A DNA stretch of 64,000 nucleotides from an uncultured Lentisphaeraceae bacterium (GCA_964386865.1 CAYLUN010000010.1:20754-84753), one strand, 5' to 3'; shown: positions 6,543-38,554, counted from the stretch's first letter. Numbers and translations: made by a program. The notes: a model not told the origin generated them from the letters alone.

Positions 6543-7313
6543 TCACTCGAACGCCACGAGGTTCTTTTCGCGCAGGCTGACGTAGCCGGGGGTCGTGGCG
6601 GTCGGGCGGCCGACGATCAGGTGGTCCACCACGCGGATGCCGAGGATGCGGGCGGCCTCGATCAGGCGGCGGGTGATGTCGATGTCCTCCTTTGACGGCG
6701 TGGGGTCGCCGGAGGGGTGGTTGTGCGCGAGGATCACCGAGGCGGCGCTGTAGCGCACGGCTTTGGAGAAGACCTCGCGCGGGTGCACGGGGCTGGTGTC
6801 GAGCAGGCCGCGCGTGGTCTCGACGGGCTGGCCGATGAGCTTGTTCTTGGTGTCGAGCAGGAGCACCCAGAAGATCTCCTGCTGGAGGGCGCGGGCGAGC
6901 GGGCTGACGAGGCGGTAGACGGCCTCGGGCTCGCGGATGGACGCGGTCTCCTGGCGCGGCGCGTGCTGGTGCTGGGCGGCGCGACGGCCGATCTCCAAGG
7001 CGGCGGCGAGCTCCATGCACTTGACCGGGCCGAGGCCCTTGACCTTCAGCCCGCGCAGCTCCTCGAAGTCGGCCTTGGCGAGGTTCGCGAGGCCTTTGAA
7101 GCGGCGCAGCAGCTCGCGGGCCAGCTCGGTGACGTTCTTGCCGGGCACGCCGGAACGCAGGAGGATGGCGAGCAGGACCTCGTCGGGCACGTTCTCCGCG
7201 CCGCGGCGCTGGAACTCTTCGCGCGGGCGCATCTCCTGCGGCAGCTCTTTGACGCGCAGCGGCGCGTCGGGGTAGACGGCGCGGTCAGGGGGATACGAGG
7301 GGAGTGGGTCCAT
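6543..7313 (-). CDS. radC: RadC-like JAB/MPN domain protein (UPF0758)
   Basis: 256 aa. C-terminal JAMM-like motif 'ILAHNHPSGDPTPSKEDIDIT' and HhH-like N-terminal region. Confidence 0.85.
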   Translation of the reverse strand: MDPLPSYPPDRAVYPDAPLRVKELPQEMRPREEFQRRGAENVPDEVLLAILLRSGVPGKNVTELARELLRRFKGLANLAKADFEELRGLKVKGLGPVKCMELAAALEIGRRAAQHQHAPRQETASIREPEAVYRLVSPLARALQQEIFWVLLLDTKNKLIGQPVETTRGLLDTSPVHPREVFSKAVRYSAASVILAHNHPSGDPTPSKEDIDITRRLIEAARILGIRVVDHLIVGRPTATTPGYVSLREKNLVAFE

Positions 7314-8235
7314 GTTGCCTCCACGTGTCGAGCACCCGCTCGGCGACGCGCGCGGGCGGGTCGGTGTCGTCGATGTCGATCCAGACGGCCTGCGTCTGGT
7401 GGCGGAACCAGGTCTCTTGCCGCTTGGCGAGCTGACGGGTGCGGACGACGGTTCGCTCGGCGGCTGCGGCGGGGGTGAGCGCGCCGTCGAGCAGGGCGCA
7501 GGCCTCGGCGTAGCCGATGGCCTGCGAGGCGGTGGGGGACCACGCGGGGTAGGCTTGGCGCAGGGCGCGGGCTTCGTCGACGAGGCCGGCCTTGAACATG
7601 GCCGCGACGCGGCGCGCGATGCGGGCGTGGAGCTGTTCGCGCGGCAGGCGCAGGACGGCGACGGGTGAGGCGGGAGTGCCGCGCCGCCACTGTTCGGGGA
7701 GGCTGCCGCGGGCGTCGAGGTGTTCGAGGGCGCGGATCAGGCGGCGCGGGTTGGCGGGGTCGGCGAGCGCGGCCAGCGCGCCGGGGTCGCGGTCGGCGAG
7801 CGCGCGCTGGAGCGCGGGCAGGCCCTCGCGTTCGTAGAGCGCCTGCCAGCGGGCGCGGGCGGCGGGGTCGGCGGCCGCGCCGTCGAGTCCGTCGGTGAGG
7901 GCTCTGAGGTAGAGGCCCGTGCCGCCGACGGCGATGAGGGACGGGTTCACGGACGAAGCGCCCGTGTCACGGCTGATCGCGCGGGCGGCGTCTGCGAGCC
8001 AGAGGCCGGTGCTGAAGGGCTCGGCGGGGGTGACGAGGTCGATGCCGAAATAGGGGACGCGGCCGCGCTCGGCGGGCGAGGGCTTGGCGGTGCCGATGTC
8101 CATGCCGCGGTAGACGAGCATCGCGTCGGCGGAGAGCACGGCGCAGCCGAGCCGCTCGGCGAGGAGCTGGGCGGCGGCGGTTTTGCCGGTGGCGGTCGCC
8201 CCGGCGAGGAGCCAGGCGTGGTGGGGGTTGTTCAC
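7285..8235 (-). CDS. miaA: tRNA dimethylallyltransferase
   Basis: 316 aa. P-loop 'GATATGKT' and 'IAVGGTGLYLRAL' motifs typical of MiaA. Confidence 0.9.
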   Translation of the reverse strand: MNNPHHAWLLAGATATGKTAAAQLLAERLGCAVLSADAMLVYRGMDIGTAKPSPAERGRVPYFGIDLVTPAEPFSTGLWLADAARAISRDTGASSVNPSLIAVGGTGLYLRALTDGLDGAAADPAARARWQALYEREGLPALQRALADRDPGALAALADPANPRRLIRALEHLDARGSLPEQWRRGTPASPVAVLRLPREQLHARIARRVAAMFKAGLVDEARALRQAYPAWSPTASQAIGYAEACALLDGALTPAAAAERTVVRTRQLAKRQETWFRHQTQAVWIDIDDTDPPARVAERVLDTWRQHGPTPLVSP

Positions 8236-8351: not shown

Positions 8352-8816
8352 TTAACCAGCAACCTGATTCCTGTGGTCGTGGTGCCACTGGGTGGCGATG
8401 TAGAGGAAGACGCCGCAGCAGATGGAGGCGTCGGCCACGTTGAAGGCCGGGAAGTGCGTGCCCCCCCAGAAGAAGTCGAGGAAGTCGATGACGTAGCTCA
8501 GGCGGACGCGGTCGATGAGGTTGCCGACCACGCCGCCGAAGAGCAGCGACATCGTGACGGCGTTGCCCCAGAGCGGGCCGAAGAGCTGGCGCCGCTTCCA
8601 GACGAGGAAGCCGAGGGTGATCAGCGAGAAGGCGACCAGAAAGATCTGCTGGCCGGCCAGCATGCCCCAGGCTGCGCCGCGGTTCTCGACGTAGCTGAGG
8701 CTGAACAAGCCGGGTATGACGCCGATCGAGCCGACCGGCTTCAGGTAGGCGACGGCCGCGACCTTGGTGAGTTGGTCTGCGGCGACGATCGCCGCCGCGA
8801 GCAACGGGACGCGCAT
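8352..8816 (-). CDS. lspA: lipoprotein signal peptidase (signal peptidase II)
   Basis: 154 aa membrane protein with LspA motifs 'NRGAAWG' and 'FNVADASI'. Confidence 0.9.
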   Translation of the reverse strand: MRVPLLAAAIVAADQLTKVAAVAYLKPVGSIGVIPGLFSLSYVENRGAAWGMLAGQQIFLVAFSLITLGFLVWKRRQLFGPLWGNAVTMSLLFGGVVGNLIDRVRLSYVIDFLDFFWGGTHFPAFNVADASICCGVFLYIATQWHHDHRNQVAG

Positions 8817-8826
8817 GGGGCCTCGC

Positions 8827-9588
8827 TTATCTGCGTCCGCCGCGGCTGGTACGCTCCATCTCGGACTGACACTTGACGCAGTTCTTGGCGAAGGGCAGGA
8901 CGGAGAGGCGCGGCTTGTTGATCAGCTCGCCGCACATGTCGCAGACGCCGTAGGAGCCCTTTTCGATGGACCGCAGAGACTCGTCGATATTGGTGATGAT
9001 CTGCTGCTGGCTGCTGACCTGCTCGAGCGTCTGGAGGCGCATGAAGGCGTCGGTGCCGTCCTCCTCGGGGTTGATCTCGTCGGTGCGCTGGAGCGCGTCG
9101 TTGCGCATGGAGCCGGACTGGCCTGTGATGCGGTCTCGCATGGCTAGGAGTTCGTGGCGGAACTGCTCCAGGTCGTTGCCGTTGAAGCGGGGCTTCTTGG
9201 GCACGGCGGGTGCCGCCGGCTTGGCCGGCGCCTTGGGCGCCAACTTTGGCGCCGGCTTGGCCGGCGCCTTGGGAGGGGGGAGGGATGCGGTCTTCACGGG
9301 TTTCTTGTTCAAATCCTTGGCGGGCACAGCAGGGGGCGGCGCGCCTTTCTTGGCGGGTTTCGGTTGGGGAGCCGGCTTCCTCACGTCCTTCGCCTTTGCG
9401 ACGGGCGCGGACTTGCCGGGTACCGGTTTCTTAGCAGATTGTGCGGGCACGGGCTTCTTCGGCGACGGCTTCGCGGCGCCAGCGGACGCGCGAGGCGGCG
9501 GCTGAGCTGCCTTTGCGGCCGACCCTTTCGGCGCGCTCTTCTGTACGCCCTTTACGAGGGCCGCTTTGCTCTTCTTCGTTGTCGCCAT
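8827..9588 (-). CDS. DksA/TraR-family C4 zinc-finger protein with Lys/Pro/Ala-rich histone-H1-like N-terminal tail
   Basis: C-terminus 'CDMCGELINKPRLSVLPFAKNCVKCQ' is a CxxC...CxxC DksA/TraR finger preceded by a coiled-coil-like region. N-terminal ~150 aa are KPAPK/AKKPVP low-complexity repeats. Start taken at MATTKKSK (ATG 9588); the upstream in-frame extension looks non-coding. Confidence 0.7.
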   Translation of the reverse strand: MATTKKSKAALVKGVQKSAPKGSAAKAAQPPPRASAGAAKPSPKKPVPAQSAKKPVPGKSAPVAKAKDVRKPAPQPKPAKKGAPPPAVPAKDLNKKPVKTASLPPPKAPAKPAPKLAPKAPAKPAAPAVPKKPRFNGNDLEQFRHELLAMRDRITGQSGSMRNDALQRTDEINPEEDGTDAFMRLQTLEQVSSQQQIITNIDESLRSIEKGSYGVCDMCGELINKPRLSVLPFAKNCVKCQSEMERTSRGGRR

Positions 9589-9733
9589 GGTTGCTACACC
9601 TTTCTTCGAAACGAGTCCAGTGCCTTGATTCGGGCGATAGTGTACACGATTGGGCAGCAAAAACAAGCCCTGAAAACGGGCGCCTAAGCCGGGAAACGGG
9701 CCGCGCGCCACGCGGTTCCGGGCCGGGGTTCGA

Positions 9734-11923
9734 TTAAGCGGAGGCCGGGCCCTCCGTCGGCTGGGTGTTAATCCACGTTTTGATCGCCTCGCTCAACGGC
9801 AGGACGGCTTCGATCAGGGCATCCTCCTCGCCGTCCATGCCCGGAATTTTGACGGCCGCTCCGGCCGCCCGGCCTTCGAGGCACTGGGCCATGCGGGTCT
9901 TGTTGGAGATGACGCCCATCTGCTCGTCGCTGTCCCACTCGCCGAGGATCGTGTAGGTTCGGCTGGTGCCGTCGGCCACGCGGATCGTGACGGTGGTGCC
10001 GGGGGCGACTTTGTCGCACGGCACGCCGGCGAAGTCGGAGCCTTTGACGTGCTTGAGTTCGTTCTGCATCTCCGATTGCCGCTGCAGGAGTTGGCGCTGG
10101 TAGTCCTTGGCCGCCTGATATTCGAAGTTCTCTCGCAGGTCGCCGTAGCTGCGCGCCACAGCGATGTCGTGGCTGTTCTTAGGGAGATCCACCTCGATCA
10201 GCCGCTTGTACTGGAGCTGCCGCGCGGCCAGCGAGTGCCACGAGGTGAGGCGGGATGAGCTCTGGGTCTGCTGGGACACGGCCCGCTTGCGCTCCGCCAG
10301 CGGCGGGTCGAGCTTGAGCATGCGCCCGATGAGCGAGCGGTGCGTGGTGGGATCCCACGCGGAGGAGGCCTGGATGCGCTCGAACAAGAGCTGCCGCTGG
10401 GTCGCGTCGAGCTCCTCGAAGACCGCCTCGAGCCACTTGGCCTGCTCGAAGAGCTGCTTCAGGCTGTTCTGCATGCGGAGCGCCTCGCCGGACAGCTTGG
10501 CCTCGACGATCACGATGGCGTGGTTCAGCAGGTCGATCAGCGGCGGCAGCTGCCACGACACGTCCTTGCGGAACCGGAAGATCCAGTTGACCAGCGTGGG
10601 CGGCGACTTGGGCTGGGTGAGCAGCCGGCGGCACGCGTCGGCCGCGTCGGCCGACTCCTTGAGCGCGGTGAGCACCTCGTTCATCAGGTTGAAGGGCATC
10701 TGCGGCAGCGCGTCAAGCAGGCGGGCCGACGCGTGGCCGCCCTCGGCCAGCAGGAACGTCGTCATCGCGGCGACGTCGCGCACGGCCAGCATCTCGGCGG
10801 CCTTGATGAAGCGCTGCTGCTCCCAGAGATGGGCGCGGAGCTGGTCGGACGGCGGCATGAGGAAGCCGAGGCGGCTGACCGTGACCGCAAGCCGGGCGTA
10901 AAGCGCGGCGTCCGTGTTGTGCGCGCCCTTGAGCGCGAAAGCGAGCCTGTCCTCCAGGACGCCGCGCTGGGTCGGGTCGAGACCCGCGAGCTTGTCGGTC
11001 TCCTCGATCTCCGCGACCGACTCGAGGATCTTGAGCGGGTCCTTGTTTGCCGCGAGCCGCTCGAACCAGTCGTCGCCGTACGCCTCGGCCTGCGCGCGCA
11101 GCTGGAGCGACTCCGTGCGCTTGGACGGGACGGTCACCAGCGGGTCGCCCTTGAGCGCTTTGCGGGCCGACTCCCAGAAGCCCTTCCAGCCGGCGGCGGA
11201 GACGAGCCCGTTCTTGACGAGCACGTCCTCGAGCTTGGTGATCGGCATGTCTCCGAAGCTGCGCAGCGCGAGGCGCACCAGCTCGCCGGGCTTCTCCTGC
11301 GCGAGGCGCCTGACGCCGTCGGGGTCGCTGTGGCGCATCGTCAGCAGATGGTCGTGCGGCGCGCGGGCGAGGGTGTCGCAGGCGGCGGCGAAGGTCATGG
11401 TGTGCCCGGACTTGCCCGCGAAGTCGATGGTGATCCGCTTGTAGAAGTCGTCCAGCCGCTTGACCGTGCCGAGCCCCCAGGCGGGGTCGATCACGAGCGT
11501 TCCGGGCGTGAGCGCGAGCAGCAGGTCGAGGCGGCGGAACGACTCGGCGAGCGGCACGTCGCCAAAGGACGCGGCGTCGATGAGCGTGGTCACGAGCCGG
11601 TCTTTGCAGGCCTTCTTGAGGGCGTCGCGGATGCCGGTCGACTTGAGGGAGACGGAGAGATGGGGGGTGCGGTCCTTGATCACGAGGTAGAGCCCGGCGA
11701 AATCGGCCGCCTCGGTCAGCTCCTGCATGAGCATGGCCGCCCACTCGTCGGCCTTCTTGCCGGACTCCAGCACCGCGACGGTGTGGATGAGGGTGAGCAT
11801 CTCGGAGGCGGACAGCGGCCGCTTCTCCAGCAGGCTCAGGAACTGCGCTTCGGTCTCGGCGTAAGTCGGTGCGACATCCATGTGGGGCGTCCTTGGGGTT
11901 CGGCGTGAAAAAAGGGCCAACAC
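9734..11923 (-). CDS. greA: GreA/GreB-family transcript cleavage factor with long N-terminal extension (Chlamydia-type long GreA)
   Basis: C-terminal 'GDLRENFEYQAAKDYQ' matches the GreA 'GDLSENAEY' motif. It is followed by an FKBP-like C-domain ('TTVTIRVADGTSRTYTILG'). ~715-729 aa; start is ATG 11923 or, more likely, 11881 (MDVAPTY). Confidence 0.75.
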   Translation of the reverse strand: MLALFSRRTPRTPHMDVAPTYAETEAQFLSLLEKRPLSASEMLTLIHTVAVLESGKKADEWAAMLMQELTEAADFAGLYLVIKDRTPHLSVSLKSTGIRDALKKACKDRLVTTLIDAASFGDVPLAESFRRLDLLLALTPGTLVIDPAWGLGTVKRLDDFYKRITIDFAGKSGHTMTFAAACDTLARAPHDHLLTMRHSDPDGVRRLAQEKPGELVRLALRSFGDMPITKLEDVLVKNGLVSAAGWKGFWESARKALKGDPLVTVPSKRTESLQLRAQAEAYGDDWFERLAANKDPLKILESVAEIEETDKLAGLDPTQRGVLEDRLAFALKGAHNTDAALYARLAVTVSRLGFLMPPSDQLRAHLWEQQRFIKAAEMLAVRDVAAMTTFLLAEGGHASARLLDALPQMPFNLMNEVLTALKESADAADACRRLLTQPKSPPTLVNWIFRFRKDVSWQLPPLIDLLNHAIVIVEAKLSGEALRMQNSLKQLFEQAKWLEAVFEELDATQRQLLFERIQASSAWDPTTHRSLIGRMLKLDPPLAERKRAVSQQTQSSSRLTSWHSLAARQLQYKRLIEVDLPKNSHDIAVARSYGDLRENFEYQAAKDYQRQLLQRQSEMQNELKHVKGSDFAGVPCDKVAPGTTVTIRVADGTSRTYTILGEWDSDEQMGVISNKTRMAQCLEGRAAGAAVKIPGMDGEEDALIEAVLPLSEAIKTWINTQPTEGPASA

Positions 11924-12052: not shown

Positions 12053-14953
12053 TCACCGCGCAGCGGACGACAGGGCCTCAATGAGGCGGGGGATGAGGTC
12101 GAAGCGGTCGAGGCGCACGCCGACCGCGCCGCCGCCTGGATGGGGCTCCACGTAACGGTGCGCGGGCGCGAGCCCGAACCGCGCGTAGAAGGCGCGGTCG
12201 AGGAAGGCCTTCACCTGCTCCGGGCTCGCCCGCCGCGCGTCCACGTGGAGCTGGAAGAAGTCGCCTTGGCCTGCCGCGTTCACGCGCACAGCCACGGCGT
12301 CCGGGCCGAAGGCGCGCTTGAGCATCGCTTCGGCGAAGTCCAGCAGGGCCAGCCCGCGGAAGAAGCCGCCGCCGCGAATTTCGTGCAGCGGCTTCAGCGG
12401 CGCGGCCGCCAGCGACGCGTCGTCCAGGTCGCGGTTGTAGTCGAACGGCACGGCCCGCGCGCGCCGCAGCCACGCCTCCAGCCGCTCCGGCCCGGAGAGG
12501 CCGCGCTCCCAGTCGGCCTCGCGCAGGAGCGCGTCGGCGTCCGGAAGGTTGTCGGGGTCGATCTCGAAGCAGCAGTCGCCGCGCTGCGAGCGGGTGATGT
12601 GCTCGATCCAGCGGTCGGGCTCGTGGATCAGGCGGAAGCAGCGCGCCACCTCGACGAACAGGTAGGCGACCATGGCCCGCAGCGGGACGCCCTGCTCGAC
12701 AGCGGACGAGCCGTCGGGGAGCCCGCGCCGCAGCGTGGGCTCGCGCCAGCCGGCGAGGAGCGCGTCGACGGCCGCGTCCGCCTGCTCATCCGCGCTGCCG
12801 AGCGCGTCGAGGACGCGGGCGCGAAGCGCGTCGCGCGAGATCAGGAGCGGCAGGCGGCGCAGCGTGTCGGCGACGCGGGCCAGCGCGGCCGGGCCGAGGC
12901 GCCCGTCGCGGAGCAGGTCCTCCTCCACGGTCATGAAAAAGTCCTGGCCGGAGGGGAGCTGGCACAGCAGGGCGGCTAGCTCCGCCGCCTTGCCGGTCAT
13001 CTTGCGGATCTCGGGCGGGGTCGGCGTAGCGGAGTCCGGAGCCGCGGCGTACAGGCCGGCCGACCACCTCCACGCCTCGCGGTCCCGGTCCACCGTGTAG
13101 GGGAAGAGGAAGTGGATGCGCTCCGTCGGAACAGGGAACACGCCGAGGGTGCGGTAGTTGTCGCGCGGGTTGGACGAGATCAGCGCGCCCTGCCCGTGCT
13201 TGCCCTTCTGCTCGGTGGCTTGGTCGAGCGAGCCCGCCCGCACGCCGGTGCCGTACTCCGCCTGGCAGGCCAGGTGCACCAGGGTGTCCTCGGTGATGCC
13301 GAAGCCGTACAAGACGTTGAGCGCGTTCTTGACGGCCACGGTGAGCGCGGAGGAGCTGGAGAAGCCGCCCTGCGGGATGGAGCCGGTGGAGAGGATCCGC
13401 AGGCCCCGGAAGCCGTTCCGGCCCAGGCACTGCTGGATGAGCTCCCCGGCTGGCCCGCCGCGCAAGGTGCGGAGCGAGGCGATGGCGTTGCAGATCAGGG
13501 AGAACGGCCGCCGCATGCTGTTGCTGACCCACAGCGCGTGCGGGGGCAGGGGGAGGCTCGCGTCCTTGCGGGCGCGGATTTCGCTGTCCGAAAAGTAGCC
13601 GAGGGAGAGCAGGAGCTGCTCGGCCATGCGCGTGCCGAACGCCTCGTACTTGGTGACGCTGTCAACCTCGTCGGGCGGATACATGGCGGGGTTGTCGGCG
13701 GGAACCGAGTTGACCTTTTCGCGGAACGCCGGCTGCGTCGGCAGGTGGTGGATCTTGCCGTCTTCGGTTTGCTGCGCGAGCAGGACGATCTGCTCGCGTC
13801 CGGACGCGTCCGCGGCGCCGGTCGGCATCTGCCAGGCCGGCCCGAAGAAGCGCCCCATGTCGGGGTGCATGAAGGCGATGCGGAAGCGCCCCCCGGAGAC
13901 GCCGATGGCGACGGGGCGCTCGGGGCTGAGCCCGGCCTCCTCCCGCTCCGCCGCGAGCAGCAGCTCGCGCAGCTGCTCGACGATCGAGGCCGTCTGGCCC
14001 GGCGTGCGGTCCGCCGTGAGCACTTCGGCCGCCGCTCGAACCGAGCTGGCGCCGTCTGACGCGTCCGCGCCTGACAGCGCCAGGATGGACTCGAGCCGGG
14101 CCAAGTCCGGAGGCCGCGTCACATCGGCGCAGAGCAGGAGGTATTCGGGATCCGTGGCGCGGGTGGAGAGCGTCCGGATGTCGCCGCCCTCCCGCCGGAT
14201 GGCCTCGACCAGGTCCGTGAAGTAGTATTGCCCCTGCGCGTTGTCGTTGCGGAGTCCGCCGAGGTGGCGGTGCAGGGTGCGGGCGCGCACGGCGTAGAGC
14301 GGGCAGTTGGCCTCCGTCAGCCCGTCGAGCCGCTGCCGCTCCACGGGGTCGCCGAGGGCGTCGATGTCGTTCTGCTCGAGGATGCGCGTGATCAGGCCTC
14401 CGGCGTCGCGGAGGATCCGGCCTTTGCCGTGCTGAGCGGAACGCGCGTAGAAAGCGGAGAGCAGGGTTAGGTCCGCCTCGCGTCCGCCCGCCTCGTGGGT
14501 TTCGAGGAGTCTGCGAAATATGGATTCGGGGACGATGCGGTCGCCCATGGAGATGATCAGCAGCGGGTTGCTCTCCACGAGCCCGGGGACGCAGAGCGAC
14601 TCATACGCGGCCCAGGCTGTGCCGCCGGTCGGGTTGGCGCTCTTCACGTAGATGTTGTCGTCGCCCAGCCGCGCCACGACCTCCTCGCAGGCGTAACCCA
14701 CCAGCGTGACGCACGGAGCCGGCTGCGCGCGGCGGAACGCGTCGATCGAGTGCCGCGCCAGCGGGACGCCCCGCACGGGCTGGACGCATTTTGGGGAGGT
14801 GCCGAAGCGCGTGCCCTTCCCCGCCGCCAGCAGCACCAGGACGTGCGAGGCGGCGCGGACGCCGCCGAACAGGTCCGCAGCGCCGGGGTTCACGACCGCG
14901 CCTGAGGTCAGCGTCACGCGCTCCGACAGGGTTCGGGGTTCAGGAAGGTTCAT
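12053..14953 (-). CDS. bifunctional sugar-1-phosphate nucleotidyltransferase / GHMP sugar kinase (Fkp-like, L-fucokinase/GDP-fucose pyrophosphorylase type)
   Basis: 966 aa. N-terminal NDP-sugar pyrophosphorylase signature 'LLAAGKGTRFG'. Central/C-terminal GHMP kinase motif 'GSIPQGGFSSSSALTVA'. Size and domain order match Fkp. Confidence 0.55.
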   Translation of the reverse strand: MNLPEPRTLSERVTLTSGAVVNPGAADLFGGVRAASHVLVLLAAGKGTRFGTSPKCVQPVRGVPLARHSIDAFRRAQPAPCVTLVGYACEEVVARLGDDNIYVKSANPTGGTAWAAYESLCVPGLVESNPLLIISMGDRIVPESIFRRLLETHEAGGREADLTLLSAFYARSAQHGKGRILRDAGGLITRILEQNDIDALGDPVERQRLDGLTEANCPLYAVRARTLHRHLGGLRNDNAQGQYYFTDLVEAIRREGGDIRTLSTRATDPEYLLLCADVTRPPDLARLESILALSGADASDGASSVRAAAEVLTADRTPGQTASIVEQLRELLLAAEREEAGLSPERPVAIGVSGGRFRIAFMHPDMGRFFGPAWQMPTGAADASGREQIVLLAQQTEDGKIHHLPTQPAFREKVNSVPADNPAMYPPDEVDSVTKYEAFGTRMAEQLLLSLGYFSDSEIRARKDASLPLPPHALWVSNSMRRPFSLICNAIASLRTLRGGPAGELIQQCLGRNGFRGLRILSTGSIPQGGFSSSSALTVAVKNALNVLYGFGITEDTLVHLACQAEYGTGVRAGSLDQATEQKGKHGQGALISSNPRDNYRTLGVFPVPTERIHFLFPYTVDRDREAWRWSAGLYAAAPDSATPTPPEIRKMTGKAAELAALLCQLPSGQDFFMTVEEDLLRDGRLGPAALARVADTLRRLPLLISRDALRARVLDALGSADEQADAAVDALLAGWREPTLRRGLPDGSSAVEQGVPLRAMVAYLFVEVARCFRLIHEPDRWIEHITRSQRGDCCFEIDPDNLPDADALLREADWERGLSGPERLEAWLRRARAVPFDYNRDLDDASLAAAPLKPLHEIRGGGFFRGLALLDFAEAMLKRAFGPDAVAVRVNAAGQGDFFQLHVDARRASPEQVKAFLDRAFYARFGLAPAHRYVEPHPGGGAVGVRLDRFDLIPRLIEALSSAAR

Positions 14954-36716: not shown

Positions 36717-36792
36717 TGGTGGAGCGAAGGAGATTCGAACTCCCGACCCCCACGTTGCGAACGTGATGCTCTACCAACTGAGCTATCGCCCC
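36717..36792 (-). tRNA. tRNA-Ala (anticodon CGC)
   Basis: Reverse complement GGGGCGATAGCTCAGTTGGTAGAGCATCACGTTCGCAACGTGGGGGTCGGGAGTTCGAATCTCCTTCGCTCCACCA. G3:U70 Ala identity pair. Anticodon loop TTCGCAA. Encoded CCA. Confidence 0.85.
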
Positions 36793-38477: not shown

Positions 38478-38554
38478 TGGCGCCCCTGGCAGGACTTGAA
38501 CCTGCGACCCACGGATTAGAAATCCGTTGCTCTATCCGACTGAGCTACAGGGGC
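38478..38554 (-). tRNA. tRNA-Arg (anticodon UCU)
   Basis: Reverse complement GCCCCTGTAGCTCAGTCGGATAGAGCAACGGATTTCTAATCCGTGGGTCGCAGGTTCAAGTCCTGCCAGGGGCGCCA. Anticodon loop TTTCTAA. Encoded CCA. Confidence 0.85.

Follow-up and report, generated by a model that had tools for sequence, protein, structure and literature searches.

Gene content of the locus

The subject of this work is a small gene cluster in a 64 kb stretch of DNA with 68% GC (GCA_964386865.1, CAYLUN010000010.1:20754-84753; hereafter the window), catalogued under an uncultured Lentisphaeraceae bacterium. Five co-oriented genes on the minus strand encode, in order, a long GreA, a DksA-like protein with a polycationic N-terminal tail, LspA, MiaA and a RadC-like protein. 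Their coordinates are collected in Table 1, together with those of the domains discussed below. The first three genes had been recognised in an initial annotation made from the window alone; all three are present, on the minus strand and with corrected coordinates.

The longest open reading frame (ORF) for greA (9734-11923) starts at a GTG at 11923 and would give 729 residues, while the ATG at 11881 gives 715; the initial annotation had proposed about 715–729. We take ATG 11881 as the true start, because the 715-residue protein is 100% identical to a database entry, because its 120 homologues are mostly about 700–720 residues long, and because three metagenome contigs, on which genes were called independently, also give 715 residues. 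Most of these homologues align over 97–100% of the query, with a few shorter or partial. The N-terminal part was once suspected of being a separate upstream gene, but it forms one ORF with the rest in more than 100 homologues. Starting at ATG 11881, the extension preceding the GreA part is about 540 residues long rather than the roughly 450 initially estimated, and the Pfam domains begin at residue 551.

For the dksA-like gene, the longest ORF (8827-9711) runs from a GTG and would give 294 residues, but conservation begins only at ATG 9588. The product from that codon begins MATTKK and matches a 253-residue database protein (P0001) at 100% identity, and independent gene callers agree on 253 residues. 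A Shine-Dalgarno-like GAAAGG lies 10 nt 5′ of the ATG. Downstream, the dksA stop and the lspA start are separated by a 10-nt gap.

Table 1 Features of the gene cluster and of its two main products, by position in the window.
Feature	Position	Strand	Product or residues	Description and evidence
Long greA	9734..11881	-	715 aa	Conserved start ATG 11881; ORF, homologues, gene calls, AlphaFold2
N-terminal extension of long GreA	10280..11881	-	aa 1-534	AlphaFold2; precomputed Pfam label PF27167 HTH_GRAD
Extension segment homologous to known long GreA fusions	11024..11548	-	aa 112-286	NCBIfam PRK06330, PRK14720
Canonical GreA module	9737..10255	-	aa 543-715	Coiled coil and globular domain; Pfam, 1GRJ alignment, Foldseek
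greA-dksA spacer	9589..9733	-	145 nt	GAAAGG at 9599-9604
dksA-like gene	8827..9588	-	253 aa	Conserved ATG 9588; ORF, homologues, gene calls
K/A/P-rich polycationic N-terminal tail	9196..9588	-	aa 1-131	Predicted disordered; composition, charge, AlphaFold2
DksA core	8830..9195	-	aa 132-253	Coiled coil, zinc-finger globular domain and C-terminal helix; NCBIfam, PDB sequence, AlphaFold2, Foldseek
Coiled-coil tip acidic pair D177-G-T-D180	9049..9060	-	aa 177-180	Within nearly invariant EEDGTDAF; start of helix 2
C4 zinc finger CxxC-x17-CxxC	8869..8943	-	C216, C219, C237, C240	Translation, Pfam, alignment
lspA (lipoprotein signal peptidase II)	8352..8816	-	154 aa	Pfam Peptidase_A8 (E = 2e-37), TIGR00077 above cutoff
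miaA (tRNA isopentenyltransferase)	7285..8235	-		Pfam IPPT; frequent fourth cluster member
radC-like JAB-domain gene	6543..7313	-		Pfam RadC, UPF0758_N; frequent fifth cluster member

A DksA-like protein with a polycationic N-terminal tail

The C-terminal 115 residues of the DksA-like protein match Pfam zf-dskA_traR (PF01258) above cutoff (E = 4.6e-10), and NCBIfam DksA_like matches there too. The four zinc-finger cysteines are invariant in an alignment of 40 sequences, as are G178, T179 and D180 at the coiled-coil tip, with D177 and A181 at least 90% conserved. AlphaFold2 predicts helices at residues 137–167 and 177–210, which form the coiled coil, and at 225–230 and 238–249. The best Foldseek matches are P. 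aeruginosa DksA2 (4IJJ), E. coli DksA (1TJL), the RNA polymerase complexes 7KHI and 5VSW, and the C. trachomatis protein 6PTG, with target template modelling (TM) scores of 0.65–0.84. By sequence, the core finds 6PTG, 4IJJ and 1TJL in the PDB, the C. trachomatis DksA 6PTG being the best (E = 4e-12). On homology and modelled structure, the 253-residue protein is a DksA/TraR-family member with a predicted DksA fold, though not a curated DksA equivalog. The initial annotation was correct in describing a basic tail followed by a DksA/TraR zinc finger of the C4 type.

The tail that precedes this core is dominated by three residues (K 22%, A 24%, P 24%), holds only 1.5% D+E and has no aromatics at all. 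Its net charge is +30 and its isoelectric point (pI) is 11.3, against 5.9 for the core, and its Lys content contrasts with 3.2% in neighbouring genes. No second such K/A/P-rich stretch occurs in a real gene within the window. AlphaFold2 models the tail as coil, with a predicted local distance difference test (pLDDT) score of about 50. The region was first described as some 150 residues of KPAPK/AKKPVP repeats resembling histone H1 and chlamydial Hc-type tails. A basic K/A/P-rich tail is indeed present, but it spans 131 residues and its repeats are degenerate: KKPV and PAKPA each occur two or three times, a KAPAK motif is also present, and the DNA shows a single weak 12-nt periodicity at 9212-9272. 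Searched alone, the tail gave no match in Pfam at E up to 10 and none among PDB sequences at E up to 1. The H1 likeness therefore holds for composition and not for homology.

A comparable tail is found in all 120 close homologues. In the 107 of these that could be measured with a motif-based script, it is 49–171 residues long (median 118), with a pooled composition of K 24%, A 21%, P 15% and D+E 2%, and each tail has at least 21% K+R. We see the same when each species is represented by one genome, a set that comprised 80 loci, about 75 of them with a scorable region upstream of the core. Nearly all of these carry a basic N-terminal extension of 38–254 residues, mostly with an M-A/T-x-x-K-K start. 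Two sister loci (L079, L080) score as non-basic, probably because the script took a spurious upstream ATG. In alignment the core is nearly invariant, while the tail keeps its composition along with the semi-conserved motifs MAxxKK, KDLxKKxVKT and KKPRF. When the whole library was searched with the core alone, 11,726 relatives came back. Of the 150 top-ranking cluster representatives, nearly every one has an N-terminal extension of 40–260 residues, and the majority of the first 60 of these, whose composition was checked, are K/A-rich. Judged by this comparative pattern, the tail is translated, as the initial annotation had supposed of the KPA-rich region, and is under selection.

There is some natural variety among the tails. 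Two Kiritimatiellia metagenome-assembled genomes (MAGs; L019 and L022) have tails of 254 and 236 residues, about twice the usual length, with 26–27% K, so the tail can expand greatly while the gene is retained. A less basic tail, with 10–16% D+E, is seen in a set of animal-gut MAGs (L044, L052, L056-L058, L061, L063-L064, L067-L068, L071-L072, L075, L077, L084). Several of these also carry a motif between tail and core, such as FENxSxDxAFxxAExMK, often after PKMKKMVVK; it resembles an amphipathic helix, which suggests that proteins of this sub-lineage have an additional structured element. The GC content at third codon positions (GC3) is 0.63–0.77 in the tail-coding part of the gene, compared with about 0.9–1.0 in the DksA core and 0.92–0.95 in neighbouring genes, and the codons GCA, GCT and AAA are relatively commoner in the tail. 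Weaker selection on codon usage, or frequent slippage and turnover of the low-complexity sequence, may account for this difference.

The long GreA and its predicted N-terminal module

At the C-terminal end of the long GreA, Pfam GreA_GreB_N (PF03449) and GreA_GreB (PF01272) together span residues 551–693 of 715, with E-values of 4e-13 and 7.5e-12 respectively, both above gathering cutoffs. Both GreA domains thus follow a long extension, in agreement with the initial annotation. The block GDLRENFEY aligns with GDLKENAEY of 1GRJ, and the tip residues D581 and E584, which correspond to D41 and E44 of E. coli GreA, are invariant in 38 sequences. Foldseek matches this part of the model to 1GRJ, 2P4V and 9A7T (target TM 0.75–0.79).

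AlphaFold2 returned one continuous high-confidence model for the whole protein, with a mean pLDDT of 89.5. In it, a helical bundle (residues 1–123) is followed by a small β-barrel (129–163) and a region of helix-turn-helix-like (HTH-like) and helical-repeat structure that extends to about residue 531. A low-confidence linker at 535–542 separates this extension from the GreA module. A Foldseek search of the extension against the PDB found no specific match, only generic α-solenoids. A candidate reading of the β-barrel as a Tudor domain of the RNA-polymerase-interacting CarD/TRCF type was unsupported: in Pfam at E up to 10, the extension gave a sub-threshold DUF3553 (E = 0.013–0.16) and no CarD_TRCF.

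One segment of the extension does have known relatives. Residues 112–286 match positions 125–300 of NCBIfam PRK06330 (E = 4.6e-17) and positions 307–473 of PRK14720 (E = 2.2e-14), which we take to be a Chlamydia and a spirochaete model respectively. Residues 1–111 and 287–534 have no detectable similarity to either. Scored over its full length, the window protein falls far short of the equivalog cutoffs (126 bits vs 697; 147 vs 714), so it is a distant relative of the known fusions and not an equivalog. A literature search on 'GRAD' and PF27167 found nothing. We read the 715-residue protein as a putatively cleavage-competent GreA joined by a predicted flexible linker to a folded module of about 530 residues, part of which is, by detectable homology, common to long GreA fusion families.

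Conservation and lineage of the cluster

Gene order was compared across the 80 species-level loci, with testable cases as denominators. An lspA gene lies at most 300 nt downstream of dksA in 77/77 loci. Long greA is upstream in 48 of 60 loci and directly adjacent in 46 of them; miaA follows in 42/65 and radC in 26/61. The same order is seen on metagenome contigs, down to 46% identity in the core. Long greA, tailed dksA and lspA, usually then miaA and radC, form a conserved co-oriented cluster of the Kiritimatiellota.

Some loci depart from this layout. In twelve (L026, L029, L033, L034, L036, L042, L043, L051, L059, L060, L065, L085), the tailed dksA and lspA are kept with no long greA within about 3–4 kb upstream, and L028 and L041 do possess greA, set apart from dksA by about 3 kb of intervening DNA.

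The homologues that bear names come from Kiritimatiellia or Kiritimatiellota MAGs, and some carry unverified NCBI labels such as Verrucomicrobia, Lentisphaeraceae or Akkermansia. The lineage of the cluster is Kiritimatiellota, not Chlamydiae. A cluster typical of Kiritimatiellota is also found in MAGs labelled by NCBI as Lentisphaeraceae, Akkermansia, Clostridia, Lachnospiraceae or Limosilactobacillus (L007, L009, L010, L043, L051, L059, L061, L070, L072, L084); these MAGs are probably mislabelled, or contaminated bins. Three relatives whose tails have TAKK-like repeats (P0294, P0263, P0295) were considered as actinobacterial DdbA-like proteins and rejected: their loci carry dksA-lspA-miaA-radC, one also with long greA, which places them in the same lineage.

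Comparison with known systems

The closest architectural parallel that we see is DdbA (SCO2075) of Streptomyces coelicolor, the 'DksA-like DNA-binding protein' of Aldridge et al. 2013, with orthologues reported only in streptomycetes (PMC3643593). Its 93-residue H1-like N-terminal domain shifts DNA in electrophoretic mobility shift assays and condenses DNA in atomic force microscopy, its C-terminal domain is C4 DksA-like with two tip Asp residues, and its overexpression suppresses a relA phenotype (PMC3643593). The 2013 study put it forward as the first nucleoid-associated protein able to link DNA conformation and RNA polymerase physically (PMC3643593). As the S. coelicolor lsp gene is SCO2074 (PMC4941574), ddbA adjoins lsp.

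The published description of DdbA thus matches the window protein in its order of domains, a basic H1-like N-terminal domain and a C-terminal C4 DksA-like domain, and the two share a tail that varies in length among orthologues and a gene that adjoins lsp or lspA. They differ in phylum (Actinobacteria vs Kiritimatiellota) and in the tail itself, which in DdbA is built from [S/T][A/T]AKK pentapeptide repeats; there are none of these in the window tail, which is Pro-rich, 38 residues longer than the DdbA domain and marked by KKPV and PAKPA. A long GreA next to ddbA is not reported. The locus is therefore a second, phylum-wide case of the tailed-DksA design known from Streptomyces, likened to it by architecture and not by sequence.

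The match of the long-GreA extension to PRK14720, presumably a spirochaete model, weakens an initial proposal that the module marks the Planctomycetes–Verrucomicrobia–Chlamydiae (PVC) superphylum. That proposal does not survive the Streptomyces comparison either, in which dksA-lsp adjacency occurs together with an H1-like tail at SCO2075/SCO2074 (PMC3643593, PMC4941574); because it is found in Streptomyces too, the adjacency of dksA and lspA is not a PVC marker. The dksA-lspA pair is common to three distant lineages, namely Kiritimatiellota, Streptomyces and Chlamydia.

The chlamydial resemblance, after which the module was first named, is partial. In Chlamydia the operon is nrdR-dksA-lspA, with greA elsewhere (PMC9126822), so that lspA following dksA is indeed a chlamydial trait as well. 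Of the solved structures, that of the C. trachomatis DksA, a protein from the same superphylum, is nearest to the window core by sequence, and the two have similar tips (D-Q-G-T-D-T-F vs E-D-G-T-D-A-F). However, the chlamydial protein has only about 125 residues, with a single cysteine, and lacks both zinc and a tail; nrdR and not greA lies upstream of its gene, and the protein fails to complement E. coli dksA (PMC9126822). The adjacency of greA and dksA is a feature of Kiritimatiellota and not of Chlamydia, and the term 'Chlamydia-like module' does not apply. The C. trachomatis GreA (CTL0004), described as 'unusually large' (PMC10995303), equals the window protein in its length of 715 residues and likewise combines a large N-terminal module and a complete GreA in one polypeptide. 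The long GreA fusions, named 'transcript cleavage factor/unknown domain fusion protein' in NCBIfam (PRK06330/PRK14720; PF27167 HTH_GRAD plus GreA), share with the window protein the homologous segment at residues 112–286 and the PF27167 label; the window protein differs in being encoded directly upstream of dksA. The statement that this architecture is known from Chlamydiae is supported by the overall size and by that segment; in the rest of the extension, similarity to those models is undetectable.

Compared with E. coli DksA, the window protein has the coiled coil, the CxxC-x17-CxxC zinc finger, the C-terminal helix and two acidic tip residues, at about 22% identity; it differs in its DxxDA tip (DxxDxA in E. 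coli) and in adding the 131-residue cationic tail. The tail itself can be set beside the KPAA tails of Pseudomonas AlgP and PhaF, chlamydial Hc1/Hc2 and the H1 C-terminal domain, all of which are Lys/Ala/Pro-rich, disordered and strongly cationic. The window tail differs in having no detectable homology to these, only weak periodicity and no H1 winged helix, and in its N-terminal position on an RNA polymerase factor. The K/P/A-rich tails of AlgP, PhaF and H1 bind DNA (PMC9239181).

Proposed mechanism and alternative explanations

We consider it fairly probable that the DksA-like protein is a two-part RNA polymerase factor, with a DksA core that acts in the secondary channel and a cationic tail that holds the factor on DNA. 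By family precedent, we infer that the coiled coil within the C-terminal ~120 residues would enter the channel of RNA polymerase. On the precedent of DdbA, the disordered polycationic tail would bind DNA without sequence specificity, and through this contact the factor would accumulate on the nucleoid, with compaction of the nucleoid as a possible further effect. The nucleoid tethering suggested in the initial annotation is thus plausible by analogy with Streptomyces DdbA (PMC3643593). The long GreA, for its part, would rescue backtracked complexes through its intact Gre module, with the linker-attached extension of about 530 residues supplying an additional contact. In E. coli, DksA competes with GreA for this channel (PMC9126822, PMC10995303); since Gre factors and DksA share it, encoding the two side by side may, speculatively, serve to balance their levels.

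A number of observations weigh against this two-part reading. At the tip of the core, DxxD is followed directly by Ala (D177-G-T-D180-A181), whereas the proteobacterial form is DxxDxA; phmmer against E. coli DksA places the tip gap elsewhere. The protein scores below the NCBIfam cutoffs for DksA equivalogs (DksA_like 65 vs 105, TIGR02420 53.9 vs 115.5, PRK10778 28 vs 289), and as its closest solved relative, the chlamydial DksA, fails to complement E. coli dksA, canonical DksA activity cannot be assumed. The 'H1-like' label of the tail is compositional only, and tails of similar K/P/A-rich composition are associated with polyphosphate in AlgP (PMC9239181). The pairing of greA with dksA is not obligatory, given that 12/60 related genomes have no long greA upstream. 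In the 145-nt spacer between these genes, a promoter and terminator scan gave no consensus match, and its RNA fold is not more stable than shuffled sequences (z-score +0.8); with no promoter or terminator to assign and no unusual RNA structure, an operon in which greA, dksA and lspA are co-transcribed is something we infer.

The alternatives concern either the ligand of the tail or the meaning of the gene order. The main rival function, which we regard as unlikely, is that the translated tail has another polyanion as its chief ligand, such as polyphosphate granules, RNA or ribosomes, and so localises or sequesters the factor or drives condensates in a starvation-linked form of control. In AlgP, a KPAA-rich H1-like tail places the protein on polyphosphate granules, and the spacing of the granules requires this tail (PMC9239181); the tail of the window protein agrees with it in K/P/A composition and in strong positive charge, and is predicted to be disordered. 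Yet the AlgP and PhaF tails bind DNA too (PMC9239181), DdbA, the only tail-DksA fusion studied, binds and condenses DNA by its tail (PMC3643593), and the genes of the locus give no pointer to polyphosphate metabolism. Less probable still is a tail with no ligand of its own, acting as a passive spacer or as a solubility or stability element, for example in protease targeting or as an entropic bristle. Its sequence and length vary widely (38–254 residues), and some gut-lineage tails are less basic and have acidic segments, as might be expected of such an element; but the composition is tightly kept in the 107 measured close homologues, with K+R at least 21% and D+E about 2%, and its maintenance against a GC-rich mutational bias points to charge-dependent binding and not to a neutral spacer. 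That the KPA-rich region is not translated at all, the true start lying near the DksA core, is very improbable. The low GC3 of the tail relative to the core, the occurrence of long frames by chance in GC-rich DNA and the nearly stop-free antisense frames of the tail could be cited for it, but it is already contradicted by the comparative data: homologues keep the in-frame ATG at the far end, with the M-A/T-x-x-K-K start and Lys-rich tails of differing lengths. In addition, the DksA_like match begins at residue 138, 5′ of every internal ATG, and the Shine-Dalgarno-like GAAAGG and the independent gene callers indicate the start at ATG 9588.

A stronger challenge is directed at the greA-dksA pair, whose adjacency could be an inherited order with no functional coupling, the two factors working independently and dksA-lspA being the only meaningful unit. 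We give this less than an even chance. The pair dksA-lspA is kept in 77/77 loci, whereas long greA is missing upstream in 12/60, the spacing is 145 nt on the greA side and 10 nt on the lspA side, and in Chlamydia the gene upstream of dksA is nrdR (PMC9126822). On the other hand, 46/60 species-level genomes have greA next to dksA, even where core identity is only about 45%, and in E. coli the two factors compete for one channel (PMC9126822, PMC10995303). The two-part reading of the DksA-like protein, with its core in the channel and its tail on DNA, remains the one that we prefer.

Broader significance

The tailed architecture is found beside lspA all through a PVC phylum that is both distant and little studied, which suggests that a DNA-tethered secondary-channel factor is a recurrent solution. 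What was a one-genus curiosity is in this way broadened to a recurrent design, while current concepts are unchanged, and databases already list the proteins under generic names. The natural series of tails, from 38 to 254 residues, could be used to probe the role of the tail. For the long GreA, we see that the N-terminal module of the chlamydial and, presumably, spirochaetal proteins has free-living relatives, and the confident model of the extension (pLDDT ~90) could help to explain the large size of chlamydial GreA.

A more far-reaching scenario, which we offer as a doubtful speculation, would make the lspA-linked DksA-like gene an ancient unit that gained its H1-like tail repeatedly or ancestrally (present in Kiritimatiellota and Streptomyces, absent in Chlamydia). 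Nucleoid-resident secondary-channel factors would then be a class far wider than the single Streptomyces case. In Kiritimatiellota the factor would be expressed together with a giant GreA that opposes it functionally and whose N-terminal module makes a second contact; as a dedicated pair, the two would control RNA polymerase on the nucleoid.

Neighbouring genes and other features

At Rfam gathering thresholds, no RNA was found in the whole window beyond two tRNAs, tRNA-Ala(CGC) at 36717-36792 and tRNA-Arg(TCT) at 38478-38554, both on the minus strand. Directly upstream of the long greA, also on the minus strand (12053-14953), lies a gene for a 966-residue protein with a MobA-like nucleotidyltransferase domain (residues 40–157) and a GHMP-kinase N-terminal domain (506–579). 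It looks like a fused sugar-1-kinase/nucleotidyltransferase, and its gene is also found 5′ of greA on near-identical metagenome contigs. At the other end of the cluster, miaA shares 29 nt (7285-7313) with the radC-like gene; this overlap, together with the recurrence of the miaA-radC pair in many related loci, suggests that the two are translationally coupled.

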